A DNA stretch of 24,000 nt from Rhodoferax ferrireducens (lineage in GTDB: Bacteria; Pseudomonadota; Gammaproteobacteria; Burkholderiales; Burkholderiaceae_C). How positions within the stretch are numbered: the stretch's first letter is position 1; every line of letters starts with the position of its first letter. The notes beneath the pieces were generated by a model that did no database searches, had not been told where the DNA came from, and was given only the letters and a program-made list of their open reading frames with translations. Where the stretch lies: assembly GCF_003347515.1 (NCBI RefSeq), contig NZ_QEII01000240.1, positions 74,065 to 98,064 of the forward strand. The letters are read 5' to 3'. Position numbers and translations under genes: made by a program. This document shows positions 8,451-21,535 of this stretch, one piece after another.

Positions 8451-10138
8451 CAGACCACCGTCAAGGGTTGGCCAAAACCAAGATCTCGACGCAGGCGTGT
8501 GCAAATTTCTTCGTGTGTTAGCCCCGCTCGTGCGCCATCAACCACGGCACCGAACACATTGCCTGACGAATTATCGACCACACGCGAGATGTGGTCGAGC
8601 GCTTTGTCGACTTCAGCGACGGAGCGCCCCTTCTTCCAGGTCGCAAAATCGTCCAAATGCCCCTGCATTACGGCCGGATCAGGGCGTTCAATGAAGGGGC
8701 GCGCACTGGCGTCCTCCTCGGTCTGAAACGCGTTGACGCCTACAACAAGCTGTTCGCCCGACTCGATGCGCCGTTGGGCGCGAAGGGCTGACGCGCCGAT
8801 CATTCGTTGAATCAGTCCCGATTCGACGGCCTTGTACATTCCGCCGGCGTCATCGACCATCTTGATGATGGACCGGATCTTTTCTTCCATTTGGTCCGTC
8901 AAGGCTTCCACGTAAAACGATCCCCCGAGCGGATCAATCACATCCGTCAGGTGGGCTTCTTCGCGAAGGACGTTTTGTGTCGCGACCGCAATGCGCGCAC
9001 CGAACTCGCTGGGGCATGCCAACGCCTCATCGTAGGCATCCGTGTGCAATGACTGGAGTCCTCCGAAGATTCCAGCCATCGCCTGAACGGTGACACGGGC
9101 AATGTTATTGAGCGGCTGTTGCCGCGTCAGGTCAACCCCTGAAGTCTGTCCGTGGAATTTAAAGCGGGATGACCTCGGGTCCTTGGCACCGAGTCGCTCG
9201 CGAGTAATCTGGGACCAAATGCGTCGCCCAGCACGAAATTTGGCGATCTCCTCAAAAAGGCTCAGCGAGATATCGAAAAAGAAGGTGAAGCGCGGCAAGA
9301 AATCGTCAGGATCCATACCACGAGCGATGCAGTCTTCGGCATTCTGAATAGCAGTACACAGCGTAAAGGCCATCGCCTCGGCCGGCGTCGCGCCTGCCTG
9401 CTGCATATGTTGACCGACCACCGACATCGGATTCCAGCGGGGAACATATTGCTTGCAATACGCGATGTGATCGAGCAATACGCGACGCGATCCAGGCAGC
9501 GAAAGCCGGTAGAACATGTGGTTGGCGACAAAATGCGAGATGTAGTCACTCTGGTTTGAAGTGCCAGTGATTGATCGCCAGTCGGTGCCACGCCGTTCGG
9601 CCGCAATCAGCATGAAGGCCAAAAGAGTGAATGGCGACGGGTCGTTCAGTGCACACGAGACTTCTCCGACGTCGACCCCTTGAAGGCTGCGCTGCATGTG
9701 GTCGACGTTGTTGATCACGACCCCACACGTTCCGAGCAGTTCCTTATCGACCGAGCTCATGTCATAGCCGCGATACACGGAATTGCAGGGAATGAGGGAA
9801 ACAGCCGTCGCACCGCCCTCCATCAGGCCCAATAGACGCGCGTTGTAGTCTGCCGGTGTGCCGAGCCCGACCAGTTGCCGCTGCGTCCAGGTGCGACCTC
9901 GGTACATCGTCGCATAGATGCCACGCGTGTAGTCGGGCTGGCCAGGGTAGCTCAGCGGATCATCGCCGCCGTACCGCGCCCAGTCGCAGGGGGTGTAAAG
10001 CGGTTTGATCGGTATCCCCGACACGTTTTCGAGAGGACGCTCCGCCGGAATCGACTCACGGTATTCGGTTTCCCACGCGGTGTAAGAGGGGGTCGATTCA
10101 AGACCTGTGGTGATCGACGGTTCAATTGGCTTGTCCAT
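8450..10138 (-). CDS. Coenzyme B12-dependent acyl-CoA mutase, large (substrate-binding TIM-barrel) subunit; divergent member of the methylmalonyl-CoA mutase family
   Basis: ORF 8450..10186. I prefer the ATG at 10138 (MDKPIEP), which has AAGGAAA upstream and sits 1 nt after the small-subunit stop. Family motifs are [55 protein letters not shown] and [15 protein letters not shown]. Confidence 0.85.
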
Positions 10139-10139
10139 T

Positions 10140-10580
10140 TCAATTTCCTTTACCAAGCAAGGCGGCACCCTCAATTCGAGCCTCACGTGCGTAGTCGCGA
10201 ATGCGCGCCGTGATTTCGTCCATCGTGCTGCCAGGATGGAATACCTGCCGTACGCCGCTCTTAATTAACTGGACTTCCTCGTTGTCCGGCACGATGCCGC
10301 CAACGATGACGCGCACATTACCCAGGCCGGCCTCCCGTAGCGCCTTGATCAGCTTGGGAACGATCAGATGATCGGTTGCCAGAGAGGAGATGCCAATCAC
10401 ATCCACATCCTCCTCGAGCGTCGTTTTCACGACGGTCTCAATGCTCTGCCAGGGAGGGGTATAGATCACCTCCATTCCGGCGTCGCGGCAGGCAGCGGCA
10501 ACAATGCGGCTGCCGCGGTCGTGGCCATCCAGCCCAATCTTTGTCACCAGCACCTTCGGTTTAAAGTCCTGTGGAGTCAT
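10140..10580 (-). CDS. Acyl-CoA mutase small subunit, B12-binding domain
   Basis: 146 aa. The canonical cobalamin-binding DxHxxG is present (GLDGHDRGS), followed by GISSL and VIVGGIVP, as in IcmB/HcmB-type small subunits. Confidence 0.85.
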
Positions 10581-10590
10581 TCGCTATCCT

Positions 10591-11250
10591 TTACAGTTTG
10601 AGTAAATTCATTTTCAGCAGCTCGATGAATCGCTTGGCAATCTCGTCCGGCGTCAACGCGCCCCCTTCCCTGAACCAGGTTTGACTCCAGTTCAGTGCGC
10701 CCATGAGCAAGAGGCGCAGATCACGCCGCTCGACCGACTTCGGCAGCGGAAGCATTTCGAGCAGTGCTTCGAAGCGGTGTTCGTACGAGTTGCGAAGGAT
10801 GGCCAATTCGGCAGCGACGGCGGGGGCATCGTCGGGTCGGATGCGTATCACTACTTGCGAGTAGTCGGTACGATCCAACAGGGCTGATAGATGCCCGATG
10901 CAAGCAGCCTCGAGCCGATTCCACGGATCGTCAACGCCATCGATGGCGGCGTCGACCTTGGCAGAAATCCGCTCAACGCCCTCGCGATAAACAGCCACCA
11001 GCAGGGCTTCCTTGGTCTCAAAGTAGTAGTAGAGCGAGCCGGGCAGCATCCCAACGGGTTCGACAATCTCTCGAATCGACGCGGCGGCGAACCCCCGCTT
11101 GGCGAATACGCGCGCGGCTTCGTCAAGCAGTTTTGGCAAACGGTTGTGGGCACGCCGGGGGACCTTTGCGGCGTCTGAACTGGTCTCGGAAGAAATGTCG
11201 AGACGGGAGAGCTTTGTCACGGGCGTTTCCTTGGCTCGCTTGTCGAGCAT
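10591..11250 (-). CDS. TetR/AcrR family transcriptional regulator; first gene of the mutase-transporter operon
   Basis: 219 aa. The N-terminal HTH region LLDEAARVFAKRGFAAASIREIVEPVGMLPGSLYYYFETKEALL is typical of TetR. Only 10 nt separate its stop from the mutase small-subunit start. Confidence 0.85.
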   Translation of the reverse strand: MLDKRAKETPVTKLSRLDISSETSSDAAKVPRRAHNRLPKLLDEAARVFAKRGFAAASIREIVEPVGMLPGSLYYYFETKEALLVAVYREGVERISAKVDAAIDGVDDPWNRLEAACIGHLSALLDRTDYSQVVIRIRPDDAPAVAAELAILRNSYEHRFEALLEMLPLPKSVERRDLRLLLMGALNWSQTWFREGGALTPDEIAKRFIELLKMNLLKL

Positions 11251-11272
11251 ACCTTCGTCATAATTAGAAAAA

Positions 11273-11286
11273 CAAACAATTGTTTG
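11273..11286. promoter_or_regulatory. Perfect 14-bp palindrome CAAACAATTGTTTG; candidate TetR operator
   Basis: Read directly. It lies 22 nt upstream of the TetR start and immediately downstream of the predicted -10 box, so it overlaps the expected transcription start. Confidence 0.5.
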
Positions 11287-11292
11287 CTTAAA

Positions 11293-11321
11293 AGTATAGC
11301 CCCAGTCTCACCGCTTGGCAA
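11293..11321 (-). promoter_or_regulatory. Sigma70-like promoter for the TetR-mutase operon: TTGCCA-N17-TATACT
   Basis: On the minus strand the -35 TTGCCA is at 11321..11316, the spacer is exactly 17 nt, and the -10 TATACT is at 11298..11293. Confidence 0.45.
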
Positions 11322-11364
11322 TAGTTACTTACCGAGCCTTGTCCAATGAGGTATGAGCGTAGTA

Positions 11365-11840
11365 ATCGGCCCACTGGTCAAGTTGGGTGGGCACCATTGC
11401 GGTGGACGGCACCAAGATCAAGGCCAACGCCATCCGCGACAAGGCCATGAGCTACGACTGAATGCTCCAGGCCGAGGCCGAACTCCAGGCGCAAATCAAG
11501 GCTCTGATGGATAAAGCAAATGTGGCCGACCAAGCTGAGAGGAACGAGCCCAAGCTGGATATTCTGGGTGAGATCGCTCGCCGCCAAGACCGGCAAAGGC
11601 CAAGCCCCGCAAGCCCTACAAGCGCGAGTTTGGTGTGCCAGAGGACAAGGCGCAGGAAAACTTCACCGACTCCGACAGCCGTGTGATGAAACGCGCTGGC
11701 GGTGGACGAGACGGCGCACATTGTGGTGGCAGCAGAGTTGACCAACATGGCCGCTGACAGCGGCGAGGTACCCGCTGTGCTGCAAGCCGTCAAGGCCAAT
11801 TTGAATGTACAGCCTGCTCAAGTGCTGGCCGATGCGGGCT
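11365..11840 (+). mobile_element. Degraded internal fragment of an IS1182-like (IS4/IS5-superfamily DDE) transposase gene
   Basis: Pieces in three frames match the IS1182-type consensus as I remember it: LVKLG, then a frameshift, then IAVDGTKIKANAIRDKAMSYD. An in-frame TGA follows at 11459-11461 where Arg is expected, then MLQAEAELQAQIKALMDKA. A second frameshift gives RKPYKREFGVPEDKAQENFTDSDSRVMKRAGG, a deletion follows, and the last piece is VDETAHIVVAAELTNMAADSGEVPAVLQAVKANL..AQVLADAG. No terminal inverted repeats or N- and C-terminal parts were seen. Confidence 0.6.
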
Positions 11841-11955
11841 CCCCGTCCGGCAAGTTCGTCACCAGCGAGGTGCTCAACGTCGAGGGCGGAATGCTGCTGT
11901 GGTGTGAGTTCTGGCCGGCCGGCAAGCCCGACTACTTCAAGGTCGATCAGCCATG
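11841..11955 (+). pseudogene. C-terminal stub of a short-chain dehydrogenase/reductase, fused in frame to the transposase remnant
   Basis: SGKFVTSEVLNVEGGMLLW matches the characteristic SDR C-terminus (..ITGQxLxVDGGM..). There is no upstream Rossmann part. The reading frame switches from transposase-like to SDR-like right after LADAG. Confidence 0.4.
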
Positions 11956-12400
11956 AACGCGCAGGACCCGGCCCCATCGGCAAGTTACCTCCACGGGCCG
12001 TTTCAGCAACTCGTGGGATACGACAGCTTGAACGACGAGCGCGGCCTGTATTTCCGGCTGCCAATCCGGCGCGACCACCTCAACCCCCACGGCGTGCTCC
12101 ACGGCGGCGTGCCCTTGACCCTGCTCGATGCGGTCGGGGGCAGAACGCTGATCAACCGGCCAATCCCAGGCAGCGGCCAGCTCATCCAGTCGTCGGTGAC
12201 AGTCACGCTCACCGTGGATTTCATGCGTGCGATTGGCGCCGGAATCCTGTTTGCATCGGGAACGCCTGACTGCAGCGTCGTGCGTTCATTGCGTGCCCTC
12301 ACAGATATGGGCACGACGTTTGCGCTCACCTTGCGCACGAGGATTCGATGGTCTTATGAGATGCATCGGACCAGTACACGCACTCGCGCGGACACCCGGT
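11953..12400 (+). pseudogene. PaaI/4HBT-like hotdog thioesterase, probably decayed (3' end undefined, no stop codon)
   Basis: The start overlaps the preceding stop (ATGA). The N-terminal two-thirds is hotdog-like: HLNPHGVLHGGVPLTLLDAVGG ... TVTLTVDFMRAIGAG. After about residue 100 similarity fades. The frame then stays open until 13260 only because it runs antisense through the ADH gene. Confidence 0.4.
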
Positions 12401-12420
12401 GCACGACTTCGCGCCTTCGG

Positions 12421-14589
12421 TCATTTCTTGGGGCGTATCGCGTCTGCCGTACCCTGGATGAAGGCCTTGATCTTCTCCACATCGTCCACGCTCAGCTTGC
12501 CCGTGAAGTCAGGCATGCCCCTGCTCATGGCCGGTCCTTTGAAGATGAACTTGTCGAGGTTTTCGATGAAGGCCGCGTTCATGTAGCCGAGGTTGGGAAT
12601 GCTGCCGCTGCGGTCCACGCCGGGAACACCATGGCAGAGAACGCAGTTGCTCACATACAGCGCAGTACCCGCCGGCACCTGGGCCGGATCGTATTTCACG
12701 CCAGCCACCAGTTCGCCCATCCAGTAAGCAACAAACTCCGGCATAGGCGCTTTGCCACCCACGGCAAAGGTATAGACCGTGCCCAGGCCTTGTCGTTCGG
12801 AGGCGCGCTGGGAAACCCCGTAAGAGCCGCCCCATCCCACGGCAATCGACACGTACTGCTTGCCATCCACCAGGTAGGTGACCGGTGCCGCAATCACACC
12901 GGTGCCCGTCAGGGATTCCCACAACTTCTCGCCGTTCTGGGCGTTATAGGCAATAAATCGTCCGTCTGCCGTGCCCTGAAAAACCAGGTTGCCGGCCGTG
13001 GTCAGCGTACCGCCGTTCCAGGGCGACACCTGTTCCTGGCGCCACGCTTCTTTTTGTCGAACCGGATCCCAGGCAATCAGGCGTCCAAACGGCTTGCTTT
13101 TCGGCGGCGTTACATTGATCAAATTGCCAGTATTCCAACCCGTACCGGAGCCTGGTTGACCTGGCTTGTTGGAATTGAAGCTCCAGTTCTTGTCGTCCAT
13201 CAGGTTGACAGGTATATTTTGCGCCGGCAAGTAGACCAACCCGGTCTGTGGGTTGAATGACATGGAATGCCAGTTGTGCGCGCCGTAGGGGCCTGGAATG
13301 GCGTCAAACGGCCGATCCGTGGGGCGCGCCTCTGCGGTCTCGATGGGGCGCCCAGTCGCGTCATAGCCGGTGGCCCAGTTCACATCAACAAAGTTTTTTG
13401 CCGAGATGAACTTGCCGTTGGTGCGGTCGATCACGAAGAAGAAACCGTTCTTCGGCGCATGCAGGATCACCTTACGCGGCTTGTTATCAATCTTGAGATC
13501 GGCCAGGATCATCGGCTGGGTCGACGTGTAGTCCCAGTTGTCGCCGGGGGTTTCCTGGTAATGCCAGACGTACTTGCCGGTGTCCGGATTGAGTGCAACG
13601 ATGGAGGCCAGGTAAAGGTTGTCGCCACCTGCGGGGCTGCGCTTGGCGCGACTCCAGGGTGAGCCGTTGCCGGTCCCGACGTACATCAGATTCAAAGCTG
13701 GGTCAAAGGCCATCGAGTCCCAGGCGGTGCCACCGCCGCCCGCCGCCCAGTACTTGCCGCTGGGGTCCCAGGTTTTGGCCGCCGCGGCCATGGAGGCGTC
13801 TTCAAATGGCTTGCTTGGATCCCCTGGTACCGTGAACCATCGCCATTTTTGTTTGCCGCTGGCGGCATCGTAGGCCGTGATGTAACCCCGCACGCCGTAT
13901 TCGGCGCCACCATTGCCAATGATGACCTTGTCTTTGAAAATCCGTGGTGCGCCCGTGCTGGTGTAGGAACGGCTGTGATCAATGACGGTGTCCTGTTCCC
14001 ACGCCACTTTGCCGGATGCGGCATCGAGGGCGATCAACCGACCATCAAAGGCGGCAACGTAGATGCGACCCTTGTGCAAGGCTACGCCACGGTTAACCAC
14101 ATCACAGCAGCCTTTGTAACCGAACTCACGTTTGATTTCTGGGTCATAGGTCCAGATTCTTTTCCCGGTCCGCACATCCACGGCATGAACAATGCTCCAG
14201 GACGCGGTCACATACATGATGCCGTCCACCACCAGCGGCGTGGCCTCAACGCCTCGTGTGGATTCGAGGTTGTACGACCAGACCAGTCCCAGGTCCTTCA
14301 CATTGGAAGCATTGACCTGATTAAGCTTGCTGAACCGTGTCTCGGCATAGTCCAGCCCAGTGCTTGGCCAATCGGCGGTCCTGGCCTCGTTGGCGCGCAT
14401 GAACGCGCCATCGACCTTCTTGGTCACGGCCGCAATGTGCGCCGTCGAGCCCTTGGCCCCTTCGGCCATGGCGGCCGGCACTGCCGTGGCAAGCAGCGAA
14501 GCCACCGCCAACGTCAGGGCCAATGCAGGGCGCTTTACTAATTTCCCTTGCCGCGCCTGACGCGCCGGCTTGATCCAACTGTTCATCAT
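12421..14589 (-). CDS. Quinohemoprotein PQQ-dependent alcohol dehydrogenase (type II ADH: eight-bladed PQQ propeller plus C-terminal cytochrome c domain)
   Basis: 722 aa with a signal peptide ending PAAMA-EG. The vicinal disulfide GYKGCCDVVNRG is typical of PQQ-ADHs, and ETPGDNWDYTSTQ is the active-site region. The C-terminal heme c motif is CVLCHG, with a GMPDF Met-ligand region. The start is ATG 14589 or, with better SD spacing, 14586. It lies 21 nt downstream of the preceding gene. Confidence 0.9.
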   Translation of the reverse strand: MMNSWIKPARQARQGKLVKRPALALTLAVASLLATAVPAAMAEGAKGSTAHIAAVTKKVDGAFMRANEARTADWPSTGLDYAETRFSKLNQVNASNVKDLGLVWSYNLESTRGVEATPLVVDGIMYVTASWSIVHAVDVRTGKRIWTYDPEIKREFGYKGCCDVVNRGVALHKGRIYVAAFDGRLIALDAASGKVAWEQDTVIDHSRSYTSTGAPRIFKDKVIIGNGGAEYGVRGYITAYDAASGKQKWRWFTVPGDPSKPFEDASMAAAAKTWDPSGKYWAAGGGGTAWDSMAFDPALNLMYVGTGNGSPWSRAKRSPAGGDNLYLASIVALNPDTGKYVWHYQETPGDNWDYTSTQPMILADLKIDNKPRKVILHAPKNGFFFVIDRTNGKFISAKNFVDVNWATGYDATGRPIETAEARPTDRPFDAIPGPYGAHNWHSMSFNPQTGLVYLPAQNIPVNLMDDKNWSFNSNKPGQPGSGTGWNTGNLINVTPPKSKPFGRLIAWDPVRQKEAWRQEQVSPWNGGTLTTAGNLVFQGTADGRFIAYNAQNGEKLWESLTGTGVIAAPVTYLVDGKQYVSIAVGWGGSYGVSQRASERQGLGTVYTFAVGGKAPMPEFVAYWMGELVAGVKYDPAQVPAGTALYVSNCVLCHGVPGVDRSGSIPNLGYMNAAFIENLDKFIFKGPAMSRGMPDFTGKLSVDDVEKIKAFIQGTADAIRPKK

Positions 14590-14610
14590 GTCTCCTTTTT
14601 TTCGTGCTAT

Positions 14611-15222
14611 TTACTTTTGAGGTAAGTCGGTGATCGGGGTTTTGCGCCGCTGTCCGGTGAGCCGGTACAAGAGCCAGGCCAAGCCGATAAAGATCAAGGG
14701 CAATGGCAGGTATTTCCAGTAGTTGCGGACGCCGACGCGAAACGGAAAAACCGAGGTCTCCATCTTCCCGCTGACCGGGTCCGCAGCACTGATCAGGCCG
14801 ATGTACCAGCCAGGTTCAGTGAACCGGTGATCCAGGGTGACCGTGCCGCGCGAATAGACCTTGGCCGGCAACGCCACCAACGTCCGCTGCCCAATCCGGC
14901 TCGTATCGCCAAGATCCTCGTAGCGCGCCTTGGCACCCAGTCCATCCGCGTCACGCAGGATGCGGAACTCCACCACGCGTTCGCGCAGCGCGGGCTGGAT
15001 GAAGTCAATCACGATCACAGCCCGCCCTACCTCGGGTATGTCCTCGCAAAACTCCTGGCTGGCACGGTGCTCGGGCTGGTACCCGGCAAAATGAGCTTGG
15101 TTGCTGCCGATGCGCAGGATGCATTTGTCGTCTTCCATGCCGACCCCGCCATGCGCCCATGCCGATGCCGCAACCAACGCAAGCAGCGAGGAACTCAACA
15201 TTCGGATCAGTCGCATCTCCAT
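14611..15222 (-). CDS. Hypothetical exported protein with a C-terminal membrane anchor, co-transcribed with the CuMMO (PmoD/AmoD-like architecture; homology not established)
   Basis: 203 aa. The signal peptide MLSSSLLALVAASAWA precedes HGGVGMEDDKC. A soluble domain of about 140 aa carries two Cys, followed by one hydrophobic helix (LPLPLIFIGLAWLLYRL) and a basic tail. The start ATG overlaps the xmoB stop (TAATG at 15220-15224). Confidence 0.6.
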   Translation of the reverse strand: MEMRLIRMLSSSLLALVAASAWAHGGVGMEDDKCILRIGSNQAHFAGYQPEHRASQEFCEDIPEVGRAVIVIDFIQPALRERVVEFRILRDADGLGAKARYEDLGDTSRIGQRTLVALPAKVYSRGTVTLDHRFTEPGWYIGLISAADPVSGKMETSVFPFRVGVRNYWKYLPLPLIFIGLAWLLYRLTGQRRKTPITDLPQK

Positions 15223-16463
15223 TACCCCCCGAACAGCGGAATCATCGGCCCGCTGATTTCAACCGGGTAGCGGTTACCCTGGGCGTCAAACAAAAACAGC
15301 ATGCCAGCCACCACCGCATCCGGGGAAGCGATCATCGTCGTCATGCGCTGCGTCTCCCACATCGCGTCGTCCGCATAGATCACGATCTTTTGCGTTGCAC
15401 CCGGCTTGATCGGACCACCCTCAACACGCAACGCGTCCTGCGCTACCAGATCATCCTGATCTTTGGGCGTGACCTTCAGAACCGCCGAGTTGATGAAACG
15501 AAGGCCGCCCGAGGCAAACTCACCGATGTTCAAGGGACCCTTCCCGCTGTTGCTCACTGTGAGCTCGATACGGAAGCTGCGCCCCGGGATGCGGTAGCGG
15601 GCATCGTCCATAGTGACCGACACCGGCGAAGGCGCCATCTTCAGAGTCGGGGTCTTGACCTTGCCGGTTTGAAGCGGTGTCGTGACGGGCCAGCGCTCAG
15701 AGGCATAAATGAAACCGCCCGCAACAAGCATCAGCGTGGCTACCATGATGACCAGTGCCGCCTGACGGTCACGCGTTGTGATCATCTCGTCGGCGTTCTC
15801 GCCCAGCGCGGTGGCACGCCGGTACCTCGGCAGAACCAAAGGCAACTTGGTCAACCAATAGCCAAACCAGACCAAAGCAAGCACCAACCATGCAGCAGAC
15901 CAGACAGCCGCATTAGCGAAGCCATGCGTTTCCAAATTCAGGGTTTGGTTAAACAATGTGGTGATGCTGTTTTCAAATGTCGCCTGGTCGCCAACAACCT
16001 CGACCCAAATACCCGGTCCAATCATCGGCCCGGCATCCTTCACATTGATGATCGGATGCAGGTGATAGCGCCCGGGTGTGCGGGCCTTCAACGTGACCTC
16101 GAAGTTGTACTGCTCACCGCGCTCATACGAACTACTGCGTATGGTGGGCACACCGTTGATGCGGCTGTCCAGGCGCACAAAAGACGGCCCGGGCACACCT
16201 ATATTGAGATAGGCAGTGTTCTCAATGGAGGCCACATGGGCCGGCCAGGAGTTCGAAGGAATAAAACTTCCCTTGACGACCAGCATTTGGTTGACAGCGA
16301 GCTTGCGCGTCGATAAATCGACGTCAAACCAATGTACGGTGCGCATGCGCAAAGCAGGCTGCTGGGCCTTTTCACCATGAGCCAACGCAGGCGCTGCTGA
16401 AAGCGTAACCAGAACGACGACCAGCCCTTGAATGACTGCGAACAATTTTGCAATGAAATTCAT
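15222..16463 (-). CDS. xmoB: Copper membrane monooxygenase subunit B (PmoB/AmoB family)
   Basis: ORF 15222..16520. I prefer the ATG at 16463 (MNFIAKLF..), which has AAGGAAGAGG upstream. The signal peptide ends ALA-HGEKAQQPALRMRTVHWFD; compare M. capsulatus PmoB HGEKSQAAFMRMRTIHWYD. Other matches are RYHLHPIINV (HxH of the CuB site), two central TM helices, and the C-terminal cupredoxin region ending FLFDAQGNRYPVEISGPMIP. Confidence 0.9.
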   Translation of the reverse strand: MNFIAKLFAVIQGLVVVLVTLSAAPALAHGEKAQQPALRMRTVHWFDVDLSTRKLAVNQMLVVKGSFIPSNSWPAHVASIENTAYLNIGVPGPSFVRLDSRINGVPTIRSSSYERGEQYNFEVTLKARTPGRYHLHPIINVKDAGPMIGPGIWVEVVGDQATFENSITTLFNQTLNLETHGFANAAVWSAAWLVLALVWFGYWLTKLPLVLPRYRRATALGENADEMITTRDRQAALVIMVATLMLVAGGFIYASERWPVTTPLQTGKVKTPTLKMAPSPVSVTMDDARYRIPGRSFRIELTVSNSGKGPLNIGEFASGGLRFINSAVLKVTPKDQDDLVAQDALRVEGGPIKPGATQKIVIYADDAMWETQRMTTMIASPDAVVAGMLFLFDAQGNRYPVEISGPMIPLFGG

Positions 16464-16473
16464 GACCTCTTCC

Positions 16474-17226
16474 TTAAACAACTTTGCGCAGCCACACAGC
16501 CTTGACACCGAGCGAGCCAATCCAGGCCCAAAACCAGAGACTCAATATGGTCAGGAAGCCCGCAAAAACCGCCGTCAACGGCGTCACTGCGTCGCCGAAG
16601 GTCCTCAATGTGCTCTGCTCGATGATGCGCACATATTCAGGCATGGCGGTGCGGATGTACTCAAAGCCCATCACGTCCGCCACTGTCATCAGCGTGCCAT
16701 GCATTTCGACCGGCACCATGAACGGGGCCAGCAATGGCCAGTTCATGGGGTACAGAAGCAGCCCCGAAAGAAAGCCCGCAAAAATCCCCGTGAAAAACCA
16801 GCTGCGCGTCAGCAGCAAAGTGCAATCAATCAAGAGGCCCACACCAAGGTAGGTCGACGGCAGCACCATATTCATCGGAAAACCCGCGAACTCGTGAAAG
16901 TTAAGGTAACGACTCAACCAGCCCGTCAGCGTCAGCCCGAGAATGCTCAGCGTGGCACCCAGAGGTAGGCGCAGCAGCTTCCAAAACGCGTAGCCGAATA
17001 CGCCGGGCAGAATAACCAGCACCAGTGGCGTGACCAGCGGCCAATAACGGCGATCTCGCCAATCAATCCAGTAATCCCAGTCCCCTACCAAGAGGGCAAA
17101 CTGGAAGGCAAATACCGCTCCCAGCAGGATCACAAAGAGAGGGATGACCACCCAGTCAACCTGGGCATCAACGCGGGCCGCTTCCTGCGGGCTAAAGGCA
17201 GCCTCAGCCGGTGTCAAAACAGACAT
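16474..17226 (-). CDS. xmoA: Copper membrane monooxygenase subunit A (PmoA/AmoA family)
   Basis: 250 aa. Matches to PmoA/AmoA as I remember them: GDWDYWIDWRDRRYWPLVTP, NFHEFAGFPMNMVLPS, MNWPLLAPFMVPVE and YIRTAMPEYVRIIEQSTLRTFG. The RBS is GGAGAC. Confidence 0.9.
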   Translation of the reverse strand: MSVLTPAEAAFSPQEAARVDAQVDWVVIPLFVILLGAVFAFQFALLVGDWDYWIDWRDRRYWPLVTPLVLVILPGVFGYAFWKLLRLPLGATLSILGLTLTGWLSRYLNFHEFAGFPMNMVLPSTYLGVGLLIDCTLLLTRSWFFTGIFAGFLSGLLLYPMNWPLLAPFMVPVEMHGTLMTVADVMGFEYIRTAMPEYVRIIEQSTLRTFGDAVTPLTAVFAGFLTILSLWFWAWIGSLGVKAVWLRKVV

Positions 17227-17291
17227 TCAAAGTCTCCAAAAAAAAGGACGGGTGTGCAATTTGCCTTTGCAAGCCGCCAACACACCACGCT

Positions 17292-17317
17292 AAAAGAAAG
17301 ACCCTCAAAGGAGGGCC
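17292..17317 (-). terminator. Intrinsic-terminator-like hairpin between xmoC and xmoA (GGCCCUC cuuu GAGGGUC followed by UUUCUUUU)
   Basis: Read on the minus strand: a 7-bp GC-rich stem (one G.U pair), a 4-nt loop, then a tail with 7 of 8 U. It lies about 50 nt after the xmoC stop. Confidence 0.35.
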
Positions 17318-17320
17318 CGC

Positions 17321-17346
17321 CCCATCGGGACTAAAGTCCCAATGGG
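17321..17346 (-). other. 11-bp RNA stem-loop directly after xmoC (CCCAUUGGGAC uuua GUCCCGAUGGG)
   Basis: Read on the minus strand: ten Watson-Crick pairs plus one G.U, with a UUUA loop. Confidence 0.4.
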
Positions 17347-17366
17347 CTTGCACGTCAAGAGCAGGA

Positions 17367-18146
17367 TCAGTGAGCCGTTTGAATGGCGGCTTGTGGCGAC
17401 ACCAGCTGCTTTGTCAAATCGGCTACTCTGCTCAATATCTGAACAAGCAAGCCACCAGCCACAAACGTAGACCAACCCAGCAGCACAAAGCCGTAGTGAA
17501 TCGGCGCGGAAAACAATTCCTCGGCATAGAAGAAAGTGTGACCCCACTCATTGAAACCGACGTTGGGCATGATCATGAATGCGCCCGCAATGATGATGGC
17601 GAACGGAAGCGAGATGCGATTGCCAAAGAAAGGGATTCGTGTATGAGCGTAGGCGAAAGTAATGAAACCCCAAAACACCAGCAAAGGCACACAGAAGTAA
17701 AATAAACCAATGTGAGTGGGTGTGAAATCCGTATCCCGGATTGTCACCTGATGCCAGGCTGCATCAGCCTCTGTGTAGATCGAACCTGTTACATAAAACA
17801 TGATGGCGAACAACAAAATCATGCCCATCAGCAAGAATAGACGCCGAACTTCTTCGCGCGGCCCAATCGTGGAAAAATCCCGCACACGGGTGTTCCACAA
17901 ATACACCAGCGTCCCGGTTCCCAACGCAAGAATCAGAATCAACTGCCCATACAGCAGGCGCATCCAGTAAACATCGAACTCATGGCTGAAATAATCGAGT
18001 CCATAGGTGAACGCCGACGCCTCAGAGTAAATTCGATAGCTGGTAAATAGCAGCGCAAGCCCAAGTAGCGCCAGAAAGAACTTACCCCACGGAACCCCGA
18101 TGGCCGCCCGCGCAGCACCAGTGATGTTGATAGAACTCGTTTTCAT
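17367..18146 (-). CDS. xmoC: Copper membrane monooxygenase subunit C (PmoC/AmoC family)
   Basis: 259 aa. Matches to PmoC/AmoC: TEADAAWHQVTIRDTDFTPTH and PNVGFNEWGHTFFYAEELFSAPIHYGF. The D-x3-H-x12-H pattern is D128/H132/H145 and the N-x3-H-x13-H pattern is N199/H203/H217. The RBS is GGAGAC. Confidence 0.9.
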   Translation of the reverse strand: MKTSSINITGAARAAIGVPWGKFFLALLGLALLFTSYRIYSEASAFTYGLDYFSHEFDVYWMRLLYGQLILILALGTGTLVYLWNTRVRDFSTIGPREEVRRLFLLMGMILLFAIMFYVTGSIYTEADAAWHQVTIRDTDFTPTHIGLFYFCVPLLVFWGFITFAYAHTRIPFFGNRISLPFAIIIAGAFMIMPNVGFNEWGHTFFYAEELFSAPIHYGFVLLGWSTFVAGGLLVQILSRVADLTKQLVSPQAAIQTAH

Positions 18147-18370
18147 CGTCTTGTCTCCTGTTATTTAAAGTAAACATCCGGCCATTGAGAGCCTGCCTGT
18201 CGAATGGCAAGACCGGACTTCGTGCCAATGTGCCGGGAATGGTAAAACGAAGCATGTCCAACGTCACCTAACTTTCGTTAGGGTGTTTTCCATGACGCAT
18301 CGCAATAAACTTGCGTCCACCTCGGATTGCTATCGCAAAAGGAGGGAAAACAATATTAAAAGATACAAAA

Positions 18371-19828
18371 ATGAAGTCTGCCTCCCCTGTAATACAAATG
18401 CACCTTGTAAGTCCGGACGAGCCCGTCAAGCAGTCTGAAGTAAAGCGCATCTTCGCCGCCCAACGCGAAACGGCCTTGCGGCTTCGTCAATCGACCGCCG
18501 CGCAACGCCTCGACAAGATTGACCGCCTGAAGCGGGCCGTCCTGGCCCGCCAGGCCGACATCCAGCGCGCCGGCGCACTGGACTTCGGCAAACCAGCCGC
18601 CGAGGTCGATCTGACAGAAATTTTGCCCATCGTGGCCGAGGCCAACGACGCGCGTCGCCATCTGCGCCGCTGGATGAAGCAGCAGAAGGTTGTCCCGACC
18701 CTGCTGATGTTCGGCACGTCGAGCTATGTGCAGTGCGAACCGAAGGGCCGTTGCCTGATCATCTCGCCCTGGAACTACCCGGTCAACCTGACCTTCGGCC
18801 CGCTGATCTCGGCTATCGCCGCCGGTAACACAGCGATTCTCAAACCCTCTGAGATGACACCGCACCTGTCGGAGGTGATGGCCGAGATCGTGCGCGAGGT
18901 GTTTACCGAAGACGAGGTAGCCCTGTTCCAGGGCGAAGCGGCGGTCTCGCAGGCCCTGCTGGATCTGCCGTTCGATCACATCTTCTTTACCGGCTCGCCG
19001 GCGATTGGCCGCGTGGTGATGGCCGCGGCGGCCAAGCACCTGACCAGCGTGACACTGGAACTGGGCGGCAAAAGCCCGACCATCGTCGACGCCACGGCGG
19101 ACCTGAAAGCAGCGGCGGCCAACCTCATGTGGTCCAAATGCACCAACAGCGGCCAGACCTGCATTGCGCCGGATCACGTCTACGTCCACGAATCGGTCAA
19201 GGAATCCTTTGTCCAGCACTGCCGGGAGGCTCTGGCCAAAGCCTACGGTGAAGGCGATGCCGTGCGCACCAGCCCTCACCTGGCGCACATCGTCAATGAA
19301 CGCCATGCCAAACGCATCGTCGGACTGCTTGATGACGCGCTTCAAAAAGGTGCCAGGCTGCTGGCCGGCGGCCAGCACCAGACGGATCGCCAGTTCGTGG
19401 CACCCACCTTGATCGACCAGCTCAGCCCGGACGCGAAGATCATGCAGGAAGAAATCTTCGGCCCCTTGCTGCCCGTGATCGCCTACCGCGATCTCGACGA
19501 AGTCATCACCAAGATCAACGACCAGCCCAAGCCGCTCGCACTGTACATCTGGACCAGGGATGGCAAAGTCGCCGACAAGGTGCTGCGGGAAACGAGTTCG
19601 GGTGGTGCCTGCGTCAACCACAGCGTCGTGCAGTTCCTGCATGGCCGCTTGCCATTCGGCGGCATCAACAATTCCGGGCTCGGCAGCGCACACGGGATCT
19701 ACGGGTTCAAGGCCTTCAGCCATGAGCGCGCGGTCGTCAAGACTTGGCTGCTGCTGGCGTCGACCTTCTACCCGCCCTACACCCCTCTGTCGCGACGGCT
19801 GATCAACTGGACGCTGCGTCTGGTCTGA
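18371..19828 (+). CDS. alkH: NAD(P)+-dependent aldehyde dehydrogenase, ALDH3/AlkH-like (medium-chain or fatty aldehyde type)
   Basis: ORF 18311..19828 (TTG). I prefer ATG 18371 (MKSASPV), but the start is uncertain because the only strong SD (GGAGGG, 18341-18346) is 24 nt upstream. Motifs are PWNYPVNLTFGPLISAIAAGN, ELGGKSP, the catalytic GQTCIAPDHVYV, EEIFGPLLPV and PFGGINNSGLGSAHG. It is co-linear with P. putida GPo1 AlkH as I remember it. Confidence 0.8.
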   Translation: MKSASPVIQMHLVSPDEPVKQSEVKRIFAAQRETALRLRQSTAAQRLDKIDRLKRAVLARQADIQRAGALDFGKPAAEVDLTEILPIVAEANDARRHLRRWMKQQKVVPTLLMFGTSSYVQCEPKGRCLIISPWNYPVNLTFGPLISAIAAGNTAILKPSEMTPHLSEVMAEIVREVFTEDEVALFQGEAAVSQALLDLPFDHIFFTGSPAIGRVVMAAAAKHLTSVTLELGGKSPTIVDATADLKAAAANLMWSKCTNSGQTCIAPDHVYVHESVKESFVQHCREALAKAYGEGDAVRTSPHLAHIVNERHAKRIVGLLDDALQKGARLLAGGQHQTDRQFVAPTLIDQLSPDAKIMQEEIFGPLLPVIAYRDLDEVITKINDQPKPLALYIWTRDGKVADKVLRETSSGGACVNHSVVQFLHGRLPFGGINNSGLGSAHGIYGFKAFSHERAVVKTWLLLASTFYPPYTPLSRRLINWTLRLV

Positions 19829-19840
19829 CGGTCTCGGTTG

Positions 19841-19873
19841 CACCGGTCTAGCCCGGTGAACTTCTTTTTTCTC
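19841..19873 (+). terminator. Weak terminator or attenuator candidate after the aldehyde dehydrogenase gene (CACCGG tctagc CCGGTG followed by AACTTCTTTTTTCTC)
   Basis: A 6-bp perfect stem with a 6-nt loop and a T-rich tract, 13 nt after the stop codon. Confidence 0.3.
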
Positions 19874-19894
19874 TGAATCGCATAGGGACAAATC

Positions 19895-21535
19895 TTGAAA
19901 TTCGATTACGTTATCGTGGGCGCCGGTTCGGCCGGCTGTGTCTTGGCCAACCGCTTGAGCGCCGATCCGTCGAGGCGCGTGTGCCTGCTCGAAGCGGGAC
20001 GGTCCGACGACACCCCGCTGATCCGCACCCCCATGGGCATGGTGGGCTTGCTCACGACCCGCAAGTACAACTGGTATTTCGACACCGAACCACAAGCCCA
20101 ACTCGACGGCCGCCGCCTGTACTGGCCACGCGGCAAGACACTCGGGGGCAGCAGCTCGATCAATGCCATGGTCTACATGCGCGGACACCAAGCCGACTAC
20201 GACGCATGGGCCGCAGCTGGAAACGCCGGATGGGCCTACAAGGACCTTCTGCCGATGTTCTTGGAGCATGAGAATAACGAGCGCGGCGCCTCGACCTACC
20301 ACAGGACAAATGGACTACTGAACGTCGCCGATGTGCGCTCGCCCAACCCCTTGTCGGGCCGCTTCATCGACGCCGCCGTGCAATGCGGTATTCCGCGCAA
20401 TATGGATTTCAACGGCGCGCAACAGGAAGGTGCCGGGCCTCACCAGGTGACCCAGAAGAACGGCGAGCGCTGGAGCAGCGCGCGGGCCTTCCTGCACCCG
20501 GTCATGGACCGGTCGAATCTGACCGTGCTCACCGGCGCCCATGTCACGCGCATCCTGTTCTCTGGCAAACAGGCCGTGGGGGTCGAGATCGAACACAAAG
20601 GCGAACGCCAGCGCATTGAGGCCGAGCATGAAATCATTCTGAGTGGCGGCGCCATCCATTCGCCGCAGTTGCTGCAGCTCTCGGGCGTGGGGCCGAAGCA
20701 GGCGCTGGCCCGGCACGGCATCACCCAAGTCGCTGATTTGCAGGGCGTAGGCCAAAACCTGCAGGACCATCTCGACGTGACGGTGATGATCCGCGACCGC
20801 AGCAAGCAGGCGATTGGTGTTGCACCTGGTTTTCTTCCGAGAGCGGTCGCCGGGCTCTGGCAATACTGGCGCAAGCGCGAGGGCTTTCTGTCCAGCAACG
20901 TGGCTGAGGCCGGGGGCTTTGCCAAGTTGTCGCCGCAATCGGCGCTGCCGGAAGTGCAGTTCCATTTCCTGCCGACCTACCTGCGTAACCATGGCCGCGA
21001 TCTGGCGCCCGGCTATGGCGCCACCTTGCACATGTGCCAGTTGCGACCGAAAAGCCGTGGCTTCATCGACCTGAAAAGCGCCGACCCGCTGGCCGCACCG
21101 GTGATTCAGCCCAACTACCTGAGCCATGCCGACGACTGGGACGAGATGCTGCGCGGCCTGAAACTTGCGCGGCGCCTCTTTGAGGCCGATGCCTTTCACG
21201 ACATCCATGGCGGTGAAGTGGCGCCGGGTGCCGGCGTGCGCAGCGACCAGGATTTGCGGGCCTACATCCGGCGCAGCGCGGAAACCATTTATCACCCGGT
21301 CGGTAGCTGCAAAATGGGGAACGATGACATGGCTGTGGTCGACGCGCAGTTGCGGGTGCACGGACTCTCAAACCTGCGTGTCGCCGATGCATCCATCATG
21401 CCGACCCTCATCGGCGGCAACACCAATGCCCCTTGCATGGTGATCGGCGAGAAGTGCGCTCGCGCCATCCTGCGCAGCCACAAGCCGCAGCCAGCCCATG
21501 CGCAAGCCAACCGCACCCAACTCTTGGCGGCCTGA
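19895..21535 (+). CDS. alkJ: FAD-dependent GMC-family oxidoreductase, AlkJ/choline-dehydrogenase-like alcohol dehydrogenase
   Basis: 546 aa with a TTG start and AGGGA 6 nt upstream. The N-terminus FDYVIVGAGSAGCVLANRLS is the ADP-binding fold. GGSSSINAMVYMRG is the GMC signature, and the C-terminus carries HPVGSCKMG and the LRVADASIMP active-site region. Confidence 0.85.
   Translation: MKFDYVIVGAGSAGCVLANRLSADPSRRVCLLEAGRSDDTPLIRTPMGMVGLLTTRKYNWYFDTEPQAQLDGRRLYWPRGKTLGGSSSINAMVYMRGHQADYDAWAAAGNAGWAYKDLLPMFLEHENNERGASTYHRTNGLLNVADVRSPNPLSGRFIDAAVQCGIPRNMDFNGAQQEGAGPHQVTQKNGERWSSARAFLHPVMDRSNLTVLTGAHVTRILFSGKQAVGVEIEHKGERQRIEAEHEIILSGGAIHSPQLLQLSGVGPKQALARHGITQVADLQGVGQNLQDHLDVTVMIRDRSKQAIGVAPGFLPRAVAGLWQYWRKREGFLSSNVAEAGGFAKLSPQSALPEVQFHFLPTYLRNHGRDLAPGYGATLHMCQLRPKSRGFIDLKSADPLAAPVIQPNYLSHADDWDEMLRGLKLARRLFEADAFHDIHGGEVAPGAGVRSDQDLRAYIRRSAETIYHPVGSCKMGNDDMAVVDAQLRVHGLSNLRVADASIMPTLIGGNTNAPCMVIGEKCARAILRSHKPQPAHAQANRTQLLAA

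Follow-up and report, generated by a model that had tools for sequence, protein, structure and literature searches.

A 24,000-nucleotide stretch of Rhodoferax ferrireducens DNA (contig NZ_QEII01000240.1, hereafter the window) carries a copper membrane monooxygenase (CuMMO) operon, in which a fourth gene, here called xmoD, directly follows xmoB. The encoded protein, XmoD, almost certainly belongs to the PmoD/AmoD family. CuMMOs oxidise methane, ammonia and short alkanes, and whole cells are far more active than the enzyme in isolated form. XmoD is not a new kind of protein: it is an additional member of an already described family, in a large and little-noticed clade of hydrocarbon CuMMOs. What the window shows is that this clade is coherent and fixed after xmoB in hydrocarbon-type CuMMO operons of hosts that are neither methanotrophs nor nitrifiers.

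Homology to PmoD

The homology is evident from both sequence and structure. A phmmer search of the PDB sequences aligned residues 33-164 of XmoD with chain residues 5-128 of the PmoD structure 6CPD (E=3.7e-19). An AlphaFold2 (AF2) model of XmoD, built on 35 homologs and with a mean predicted local distance difference test score (pLDDT) of 87, was compared with the PDB using Foldseek. The match to 6cpd_A had E=5.9e-12, a target-normalised template modelling (TM) score of 0.84, 34% identity and a root mean square deviation of 2.6 Å over 130 columns; the only strong matches were 6cpd_A and 6cpd_B (TM scores 0.84-0.85, 33-34% identity). The original prediction, which was made from the sequence alone, had suggested a PmoD/AmoD-like layout, and the sequence and structure comparisons agree with it. 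It had also reported no convincing sequence similarity, a statement that these matches overturn.

Fisher et al. (2018, PMC6189053) defined the PmoD family by a periplasmic cupredoxin-like domain that contains two strictly conserved cysteines, preceded by an N-terminal signal peptide and followed by a C-terminal transmembrane helix, and by its occurrence in CuMMO genomes. All four features are found in XmoD: a predicted signal peptide, a 6CPD-like domain with the two cysteines, a transmembrane helix and a place in a CuMMO operon. The cysteines, Cys34 and Cys59, are the counterparts of Cys41 (C1) and Cys65 (C2), which form a disulfide in the 6CPD crystal (Fisher et al. 2018, PMC6189053). Both are invariant in 120 of 120 close homologs, and among 150 representatives they are found in 143 and 147, respectively; Cys59 lies in an invariant QEFCEDIP block.

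Scans of XmoD against Pfam and NCBIfam gave no match at E<=1. No curated model in either database covers PmoD/AmoD-type proteins, which is why members of this family are labelled 'hypothetical protein'. CopC and YcnI had been named among the proteins to compare it with; the database check gave no Pfam CopC, LPMO_10 or YcnI match at E<=1. Membership of the CopC family was rejected, as XmoD does not match PF04234 and the true CopC of a related locus (L009) scores 4.5e-21.

The gene had been described as uncharacterised, yet an ortholog has already been catalogued as an in-operon PmoD. The Solimonas aquatica protein Ga0070002_104146, which is 53% identical to XmoD and corresponds to one of our loci (L032) by identical coordinates, is listed in Supplementary Data 2 of Fisher et al. 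(2018, PMC6189053), a table that includes an 'H1' column. Its entry reads group 'other', in a CuMMO operon, H1=H, motif Cx9HxnC and neighbourhood 'cabdcd'.

Three sets of relatives place XmoD within the family. PmoD of Methylocystis sp. ATCC 49242 (Rockwell; Met49242_1452), the protein of 6CPD, is like XmoD in family, fold and architecture, in its two invariant cysteines, in a histidine at C1+10 and in the position of its gene directly after that of the B subunit. The two differ in several residues: Met49 of PmoD is Gln42 in XmoD, M42-V-M44 is I-L-R (Ile and Arg replacing the two methionines of the crystal), Asp32 is Asn in PmoD, and the predicted mature start is Glu-Gly-Gly in PmoD and His-Gly-Gly in XmoD. 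They differ also in motif class (Cx7MxH versus Cx9H) and in host enzyme, particulate methane monooxygenase (pMMO) versus a putative short-chain-alkane CuMMO. The proteins of S. aquatica DSM 25927 and of Polaromonas sp. AER18D-145 and AET17H-212 (88% identity) are in the same orthologous clade as XmoD, with the same AHGGV..C..x9H..QEFCEDIP pattern and the same place directly after xmoB. Downstream of D, Solimonas has copC-copD (hence 'cabdcd'), whereas the window and Polaromonas have a gene for a pyrroloquinoline quinone (PQQ) alcohol dehydrogenase. Finally, AmoD (orf5) and AmoE (orf4) of ammonia-oxidising bacteria, for instance NE0941 and NE0942 of Nitrosomonas europaea, are PmoD-family proteins that, like XmoD, are membrane-anchored, encoded directly after the B subunit gene (amoB) and in possession of the H1, C1 and C2 residues (Fisher et al. 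2018, Supplementary Data 2, PMC6189053). Unlike XmoD, both keep a methionine next to H2 (AmoD is of class Cx8MH, AmoE of class Cx7MxH), and the beta-proteobacterial ammonia oxidisers have two tandem copies, AmoD and AmoE, where the window has one.

The xmoD gene and its conservation

The 203-residue open reading frame (ORF) proposed for this region exists, and its strand, which the original prediction did not state, is minus. That xmoD is a real gene, beyond chance, follows from its 220 homolog clusters and 741 representatives, a ratio of nonsynonymous to synonymous substitution rates (dN/dS) of 0.16-0.22 against three Polaromonas and Hydrogenophaga orthologs, and the presence of xmoB upstream in 80 of 80 loci. 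Plus-strand ORFs at 14827-15270 and 15159-16316 overlap real genes without support of their own and were rejected as spurious. A second ATG of xmoD, two codons in at 15216, is the start of most database homologs and would give a product of 201 residues.

Read from the sequence, the ATG of xmoD and the TAA stop of xmoB overlap by a single nucleotide, an A that is common to both codons (GGGGGGTAATGGAGATG; in a longer stretch, CTGTTCGGGGGGTAATGGAGATG). No terminator-like site was found among xmoB, xmoD and the alcohol dehydrogenase gene (14589-15222 examined). The xmoD product is made from a transcript region that it has in common with xmoB, and the coupling of the two genes is tight and probably translational. 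The overlap had been noted before and had been taken to argue for translational coupling and stoichiometric co-production; the former is supported, while the latter is deduced from the overlap alone.

The homologs were collected in three ways. A word-indexed search with XmoD gave the 220 clusters, the nearest of which (84-91% identity) belong to Comamonadaceae such as Polaromonas, Rhodoferax and Hydrogenophaga. An exhaustive profile search gave the 741 representatives at 50% identity (E<=1e-3). Lastly, a locus scan using one genome per species, seeded only with XmoD peptide patterns, gave 114 confirmed loci, and the best 80 were analysed. Although the scan made use of the D protein only, all 80 loci have an xmoB homolog as the immediate upstream neighbour in the same orientation, and xmoA precedes xmoB wherever the contig allows. 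The earlier description of a fourth gene of the CuMMO operon is supported, and the gene is a conserved one. In the 76 loci where the junction could be resolved, the distance between the xmoB stop and the inferred D start has a median of 13.5 nt and a maximum of 193 nt; the two overlap in 33 of them, mostly by 1 or 4 nt.

The hosts of the D gene are Comamonadaceae, Nevskiales (Solimonas, Nevskia, Panacagrimonas and Sinimarinibacterium), Porticoccaceae, Macondimonas, Thiotrichaceae and unclassified Gammaproteobacteria; no classical methanotroph or nitrifier genus name occurs among the hosts of the 80 loci. Downstream of D the neighbourhoods diverge, and the next gene in relatives is as a rule a copper gene. 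A multicopper oxidase gene comes next in 29 loci, a copC that overlaps the D stop in 14, and a gene for a CopD-cytochrome c fusion of about 640 residues follows D in 20. A small protein encoded about 1.7 kb downstream of D in 32 loci weakly matches a multicopper-oxidase domain (of cupredoxin type). The PQQ alcohol dehydrogenase gene follows D only in the Burkholderiales branch, to which the window belongs, and among the 80 loci in 8 (L001-L008), with a gap of about 20-50 nt.

From 12417 to 21116 the window aligns collinearly with Polaromonas sp. AER18D-145, with 86-90% identity at the nucleotide level. This strain is among the C2-C4-alkane-utilising isolates reported by Rochman et al. 2020. 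The cultured Polaromonas strains, with their 88%-identical ortholog, offer a heterotrophic system for PmoD genetics.

A clade without the CuA motif

Does XmoD have what is needed for the purple CuA site of PmoD? In the Methylocystis protein this site requires that two monomers each supply Cys41, Met49 and His51, and the M49A substitution abolished it (Fisher et al. 2018, PMC6189053). Copper was bound in vitro by all four of the PmoD motif classes tested, and CuA was found only in Cx7MxHxnC; the representatives of Cx9HxnC, Cx8MxnC and CxnC also bound copper but showed no features of CuA (Fisher et al. 2018, PMC6189053).

The motif of XmoD is C34-ILRIGSN-Q42-A43-H44, which is Cx9H and not Cx7MxH. 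His44, the counterpart of His51 (H2), is found in 119 of 120 close homologs. At position 42, the place of Met49, the same 120 sequences have arginine in 94, lysine in 14 and glutamine in 5, while the equivalent residue is methionine in 119 of 119 in-operon PmoDs of alpha-methanotrophs. Because the methionine of the Cx7MxH motif, which published work found to be needed, is absent, XmoD should not form CuA; by the published motif rule it should bind copper without doing so.

In the published survey, an in-operon position was tied to the methionine classes (Cx7MxH and Cx8MH) and the Cx9H class to copC neighbourhoods (Fisher et al. 2018, PMC6189053). The XmoD clade is a notable departure from this association, being in-operon and, as a whole, Cx9H. 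The existence of an in-operon clade without the CuA motif means that in-operon PmoDs cannot have CuA as their general function.

A predicted N-terminal histidine

The order of elements in XmoD is a signal peptide, the site AWA/HGGVGMEDDKC, a periplasmic domain of about 145 residues, one transmembrane helix and a basic tail (QRRKTPITDLPQK), a layout that agrees with the earlier description. The predicted signal peptide, MEMRLIRMLSSSLLALVAASAWA, has an n-region with two arginines and an h-region rich in leucine and alanine, followed by an A-x-A site; the predicted mature protein begins HGGVGMEDDKCILRIGSNQAHFAGYQPEHRASQEFCEDIP. In the AF2 model the soluble domain is a beta-sandwich with a pLDDT mostly above 90, and the transmembrane helix spans residues 173-189, close to the Kyte-Doolittle peak at 170-190. 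The helix-plus-tail layout is kept across the homolog alignment. Two other modes of export or anchoring were considered and rejected: XmoD has no lipobox, DDK preceding Cys34, and so does not read as a lipoprotein, and it has no twin-arginine motif for Tat export.

The mature protein is predicted to begin with His24, which corresponds to the family position 'H1'. It is present in 117 of 118 close homologs and in 128 of 137 representatives at 50% identity, and the pattern [AGS]HGG[VL] is read in 76 of 76 resolved genome loci. A logo of the signal peptidase I (SPase I) site was made from 134 diverse 50%-identity representatives, anchored on the glycine following the histidine. Positions -12 to -7 are leucine-rich and -6 to -4 polar (S/P/G), -3 is A/V (2.4 bits) and -1 is A/G/S (3.3 bits). 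On the other side of the site, +1 is histidine in 125 of 134 (3.9 bits), +2 is glycine in 133 of 134 (4.3 bits), +3 is glycine and +4 valine or leucine. Conservation of the mature protein starts exactly at His24. The suggestion that the mature N-terminus is a histidine is borne out to the extent of a predicted, conserved A-x-A/H-G site. The methionine that had been pointed out close to it, Met29, is not conserved (M/I/V/L). In published PmoD proteomics, soluble domains and C-terminal helices were detected and signal peptides never (Fisher et al. 2018, PMC6189053).

The candidate ligand is not peculiar to xmoD but appears to be family-wide. Supplementary Data 2 of Fisher et al. (2018, PMC6189053) gives 'H1' as H for AmoD (NE0941/NE2060, Noc_2500), for AmoE (NE0942/NE2061) and for many gamma-methanotroph PmoDs. 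Going by predicted cleavage sites, a His-Gly-Gly mature N-terminus is nearly universal in PmoD/AmoD proteins, those of the nitrifiers included, outside the in-operon branch of the alpha-methanotrophs. In that branch, Glu or Asp occupies the H1 position in 97 of 108 aligned sequences and goes with Asn at position 32. The full-length Methylocystis PmoD (P0272), which reads ..APQSRA/EGGAGPEAMSMGNMC, has such a start, Glu-Gly-Gly.

It is the only PmoD to have been crystallised. The 6CPD construct begins at Gly38 (SM-GNMC..), 11 residues further in than the predicted mature start, and lacks EGGAGPEAMSM, where two methionines and the counterpart of the family's N-terminal histidine are located. All published PmoD constructs carry two extra vector residues (Ser-Met), which block the native alpha-amine. 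Since the crystallised PmoD has Glu at this place and the constructs carry vector residues, no published construct had a free histidine alpha-amine, although the predicted N-terminal histidine is the best-conserved candidate ligand in the XmoD clade. Fisher et al. (2018, PMC6189053) do not use the phrase 'histidine brace' in their main text, and none of the papers searched pairs it with 'PmoD'.

Several known copper proteins are comparable. The CuB site of PmoB, CopC, methanotroph PCuAC, YcnI and the AA10 lytic polysaccharide monooxygenases (LPMOs) resemble XmoD in having a histidine, predicted to be N-terminal, after an SPase I site, followed by glycine, and all of these are periplasmic or extracytoplasmic beta-sandwich domains. 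The mature N-terminus of AA10 LPMOs is HG.. XmoD differs from these histidine-brace families in belonging to none of them by sequence, as the Pfam results above indicate. AA10 LPMOs and Methylosinus CopC are the next-best Foldseek matches of the XmoD model (E of 2.5e-3 to 3e-2, TM scores 0.3-0.5), a likeness that amounts to a generic beta-sandwich. Within the operon itself, the maturation site of XmoB is APALA/HGEKAQQ and the HxH motif is also kept (HLH at 153), in agreement with the HGEK N-terminus reported for this subunit by the original prediction.

Other residues near the N-terminus show a pattern of their own. Among the 137 representatives, Asp32 is found in 108 of 112 that have His44 and in 4 of 25 that lack it (not corrected for phylogeny), a covariation which suggests that Asp32 and His44 work together. 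His24 is kept in 23 of the 25 representatives without His44, and a brace made from H1 and H2 is therefore not obligatory. A histidine brace is a plausible hypothesis, one that concerns the whole family more than this one gene. The stronger proposal, that a brace-like mononuclear site (the alpha-amine and imidazole of the histidine, possibly with Asp32 and His44) is the physiological copper site of PmoD/AmoD proteins, is tentative, and on balance we lean against it. If it were true, the site would have been invisible to published biochemistry, with Glu in the crystallised protein and a Ser-Met extension in the constructs. Furthermore, the N-terminal-histidine chemistry of XmoD would be that of CuB in the B subunit, which would suggest a direct hand-over of copper from one histidine brace to another.

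Proposed role and alternatives

We somewhat favour a copper-binding accessory role for XmoD in the service of the CuMMO. The protein would be exported, its signal peptide cleaved, and it would stay tethered by its C-terminal helix, which would hold the soluble domain on the periplasmic face of the inner membrane beside the periplasmic copper-binding domain of XmoB. A single copper ion would most likely be bound near the N-terminus, with His24, Asp32, His44 and possibly Cys34 as candidate ligands. From there XmoD would load, re-load, repair or stabilise the copper sites of the CuMMO, and it is probably neither a catalytic nor a structural subunit. This role fits because disruption of pmoD in Methylosinus causes a copper-dependent growth defect on methane, because the family is nearly confined to CuMMO genomes (98.5%; Fisher et al. 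2018, PMC6189053) and because copper genes are neighbours of D in relatives.

A number of points weigh against this role. The roles of PmoD/AmoD in methanotrophs are still debated, with electron delivery, copper loading and stabilisation all having been proposed. Actinobacterial hydrocarbon CuMMOs work without PmoD, which is therefore not universally required, and given the disulfide of 6CPD, Cys34 may be no ligand (Fisher et al. 2018, PMC6189053). Confidence of the AF2 model is only moderate at the N-terminus, with a pLDDT of 63 for residues 21-30. In addition, unlike many of its relatives, the operon of the window has no copC/copD or multicopper oxidase gene next to D.

Other explanations of XmoD have to be weighed alongside this one. 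It might be a CuA-type electron-transfer protein that dimerises on a Cu2S2 core bridged by the two Cys34 residues and passes electrons to the CuMMO. The search for the reductant of CuMMOs continues, and the literature has put PmoD forward as an electron donor; XmoD has its fold and family in common with a CuA-forming PmoD, and the equivalents of the ligands Cys41 and His51 are conserved. However, the place of Met49 is taken by Gln in XmoD and by Arg or Lys in its clade, the effect of M49A and the behaviour of the tested Cx9HxnC protein both speak against CuA (Fisher et al. 2018, PMC6189053), and in the literature the in vitro CuA dimer of PmoD itself is without proven physiological relevance, so we consider this role unlikely. 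The fourth subunit that the original prediction allowed for is likewise unsupported, as a 2026 review sees no strong evidence for PmoD in the cryo-electron microscopy structures of pMMO and ammonia monooxygenase (AMO). As a stoichiometric structural subunit, XmoD would lay its helix against XmoC/XmoA and its soluble domain against XmoB. Its anchor does put it in the membrane of the CuMMO, the stop/start overlap and the strictly conserved gene order are consistent with such a subunit, and the same review describes an unassigned helix beside PmoC in pMMO/AMO structures. But in Methylocystis and Nitrosomonas other small ORFs have been assigned to that helix, many relatives have gaps of up to 193 nt between xmoB and D, and the actinobacterial CuMMOs lack PmoD altogether (Fisher et al. 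2018, PMC6189053); we give this explanation little credence.

It is similarly improbable that XmoD is a general periplasmic copper-homeostasis protein, active in buffering or resistance and placed near xmoCAB only for the copper need of the operon. The D gene directly follows xmoB in 80 of 80 loci, no cop genes lie beside it in the window and its Comamonadaceae relatives, and the family is all but confined to CuMMO genomes (98.5%; Fisher et al. 2018, PMC6189053). These observations stand against the classical copper genes (CopC, CopD, multicopper oxidase) downstream of D in relatives, and against the many methanotroph PmoD paralogs that sit off the pmo operons near copC, PCuAC or multicopper oxidase genes (Fisher et al. 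2018, PMC6189053). Still less probable is a thiol-disulfide or otherwise non-metal protein with a structural disulfide, an adaptor that organises CuMMO arrays or docks the quinohaemoprotein alcohol dehydrogenase. The Cys41-Cys65 disulfide of 6CPD and the PQQ alcohol dehydrogenase/cytochrome c gene some 20-50 nt after D in the Comamonadaceae clade are compatible with it, although this linkage is seen in only 8 of 80 loci, the conserved H/D/H/C near the N-terminus are typical metal ligands and copper was bound by every PmoD class assayed in vitro (Fisher et al. 2018, PMC6189053).

The operon and its surroundings

The best explanation of the operon in the window is a CuMMO operon of the short-chain-hydrocarbon type, in the order xmoC-A-B-D and then the PQQ alcohol dehydrogenase gene, which begins 21 nt past the xmoD stop (Table 1); the host is a Polaromonas-like bacterium of the Comamonadaceae. 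The mechanical ORF of xmoB starts with a TTG at 16520 and overlaps xmoA by 47 nt. The real start is probably the ATG at 16463 (MNFIAKLF..), which gives a normal signal peptide with the ALA/HGEK end and a 10-nt gap after the xmoA stop.

Table 1. Features on the window, with positions counted from its first nucleotide.
Feature	Position	Strand	Basis
xmoD (PmoD/AmoD-family gene)	14611..15222	minus	203 aa ORF
Predicted Sec signal peptide, residues 1-23, ending at SPase I site A-W-A	15154..15222	minus	sequence and logo
His24 codon (CAT), predicted first mature residue, family 'H1', followed by Gly25-Gly26-Val27	15151..15153	minus
Periplasmic cupredoxin-like domain, residues 24-168	14719..15153	minus	6CPD alignment and AF2 beta-sandwich
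Asp32 codon	15127-15129	minus
Cys34 codon, PmoD Cys41 (C1, invariant)	15121..15123	minus	6CPD alignment
Gln42-Ala43-His44; His44 is PmoD His51 (H2), Gln42 at the place of CuA ligand Met49	15091..15099	minus	6CPD alignment
His44 codon	15091-15093	minus
Cys59 codon, PmoD Cys65 (C2, invariant), in invariant QEFCEDIP block	15046..15048	minus	6CPD alignment
C-terminal transmembrane helix (about residues 169-189) and basic cytoplasmic tail (190-203)	14614..14718	minus	AF2, hydropathy
xmoB	15222..16520	minus	Pfam Monooxygenase_B 1.5e-121; NCBIfam AmoB_BACT
xmoA	16474..17226	minus	Pfam AMO 1.6e-76
xmoC	17367..18146	minus	Pfam AmoC 1.2e-70
PQQ-dependent alcohol dehydrogenase with C-terminal cytochrome c domain, 722 aa	12421..14589	minus	Pfam PQQ 6e-80 and Cytochrome_CBB3
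B12-dependent acyl-CoA mutase, small B12-binding subunit	10140-10580	minus
B12-dependent acyl-CoA mutase, large subunit	8450-10186	minus
MeaB-type GTPase fused to 4HBT thioesterase domain	7107-8504	minus

The strongest terminator-like hairpin of the region lies at 17299-17318 on the minus strand, in the 140-nt spacer between xmoC and xmoA (17227-17366). It reads GGGCCCTCC-TTTG-AGGGTCT with TTCTTTT behind it, and 5 of its 8 pairs are G-C. This hairpin may set the ratio of C to AB, either as an attenuator or as an element acting on mRNA processing or stability.

Synteny with Polaromonas sp. AER18D-145 (L001) stops just past the alcohol dehydrogenase gene. In L001 and about 20 loci that gene is followed by one for a secreted protein of 201 residues without a Pfam match (..VALA/TEHAHAASKSG..), of which the window keeps a 12-residue relic at 12344-12379. 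The 1.1 kb or so up to the TetR gene (within 11250-12420) holds only short ORFs with no Pfam matches.

Judging by its gene content, the window looks like an island for the utilisation of short-chain hydrocarbons or alcohols. Outside the operon are genes for a divergent aldehyde dehydrogenase, a GMC oxidoreductase, an acyl-CoA synthetase, OmpW and a TetR regulator, as well as a second AMP-binding enzyme and a Liv-type ABC transporter. The stretch 7107-10580, which encodes the acyl-CoA mutase and the MeaB-thioesterase fusion, sits beside alkane-oxidation genes, and an acyl-CoA synthetase gene follows the fusion. The position of the mutase next to the alkane genes suggests a putative C4 acyl-CoA isomerisation, of the isobutyryl/butyryl-CoA or 2-hydroxyisobutyryl-CoA type.

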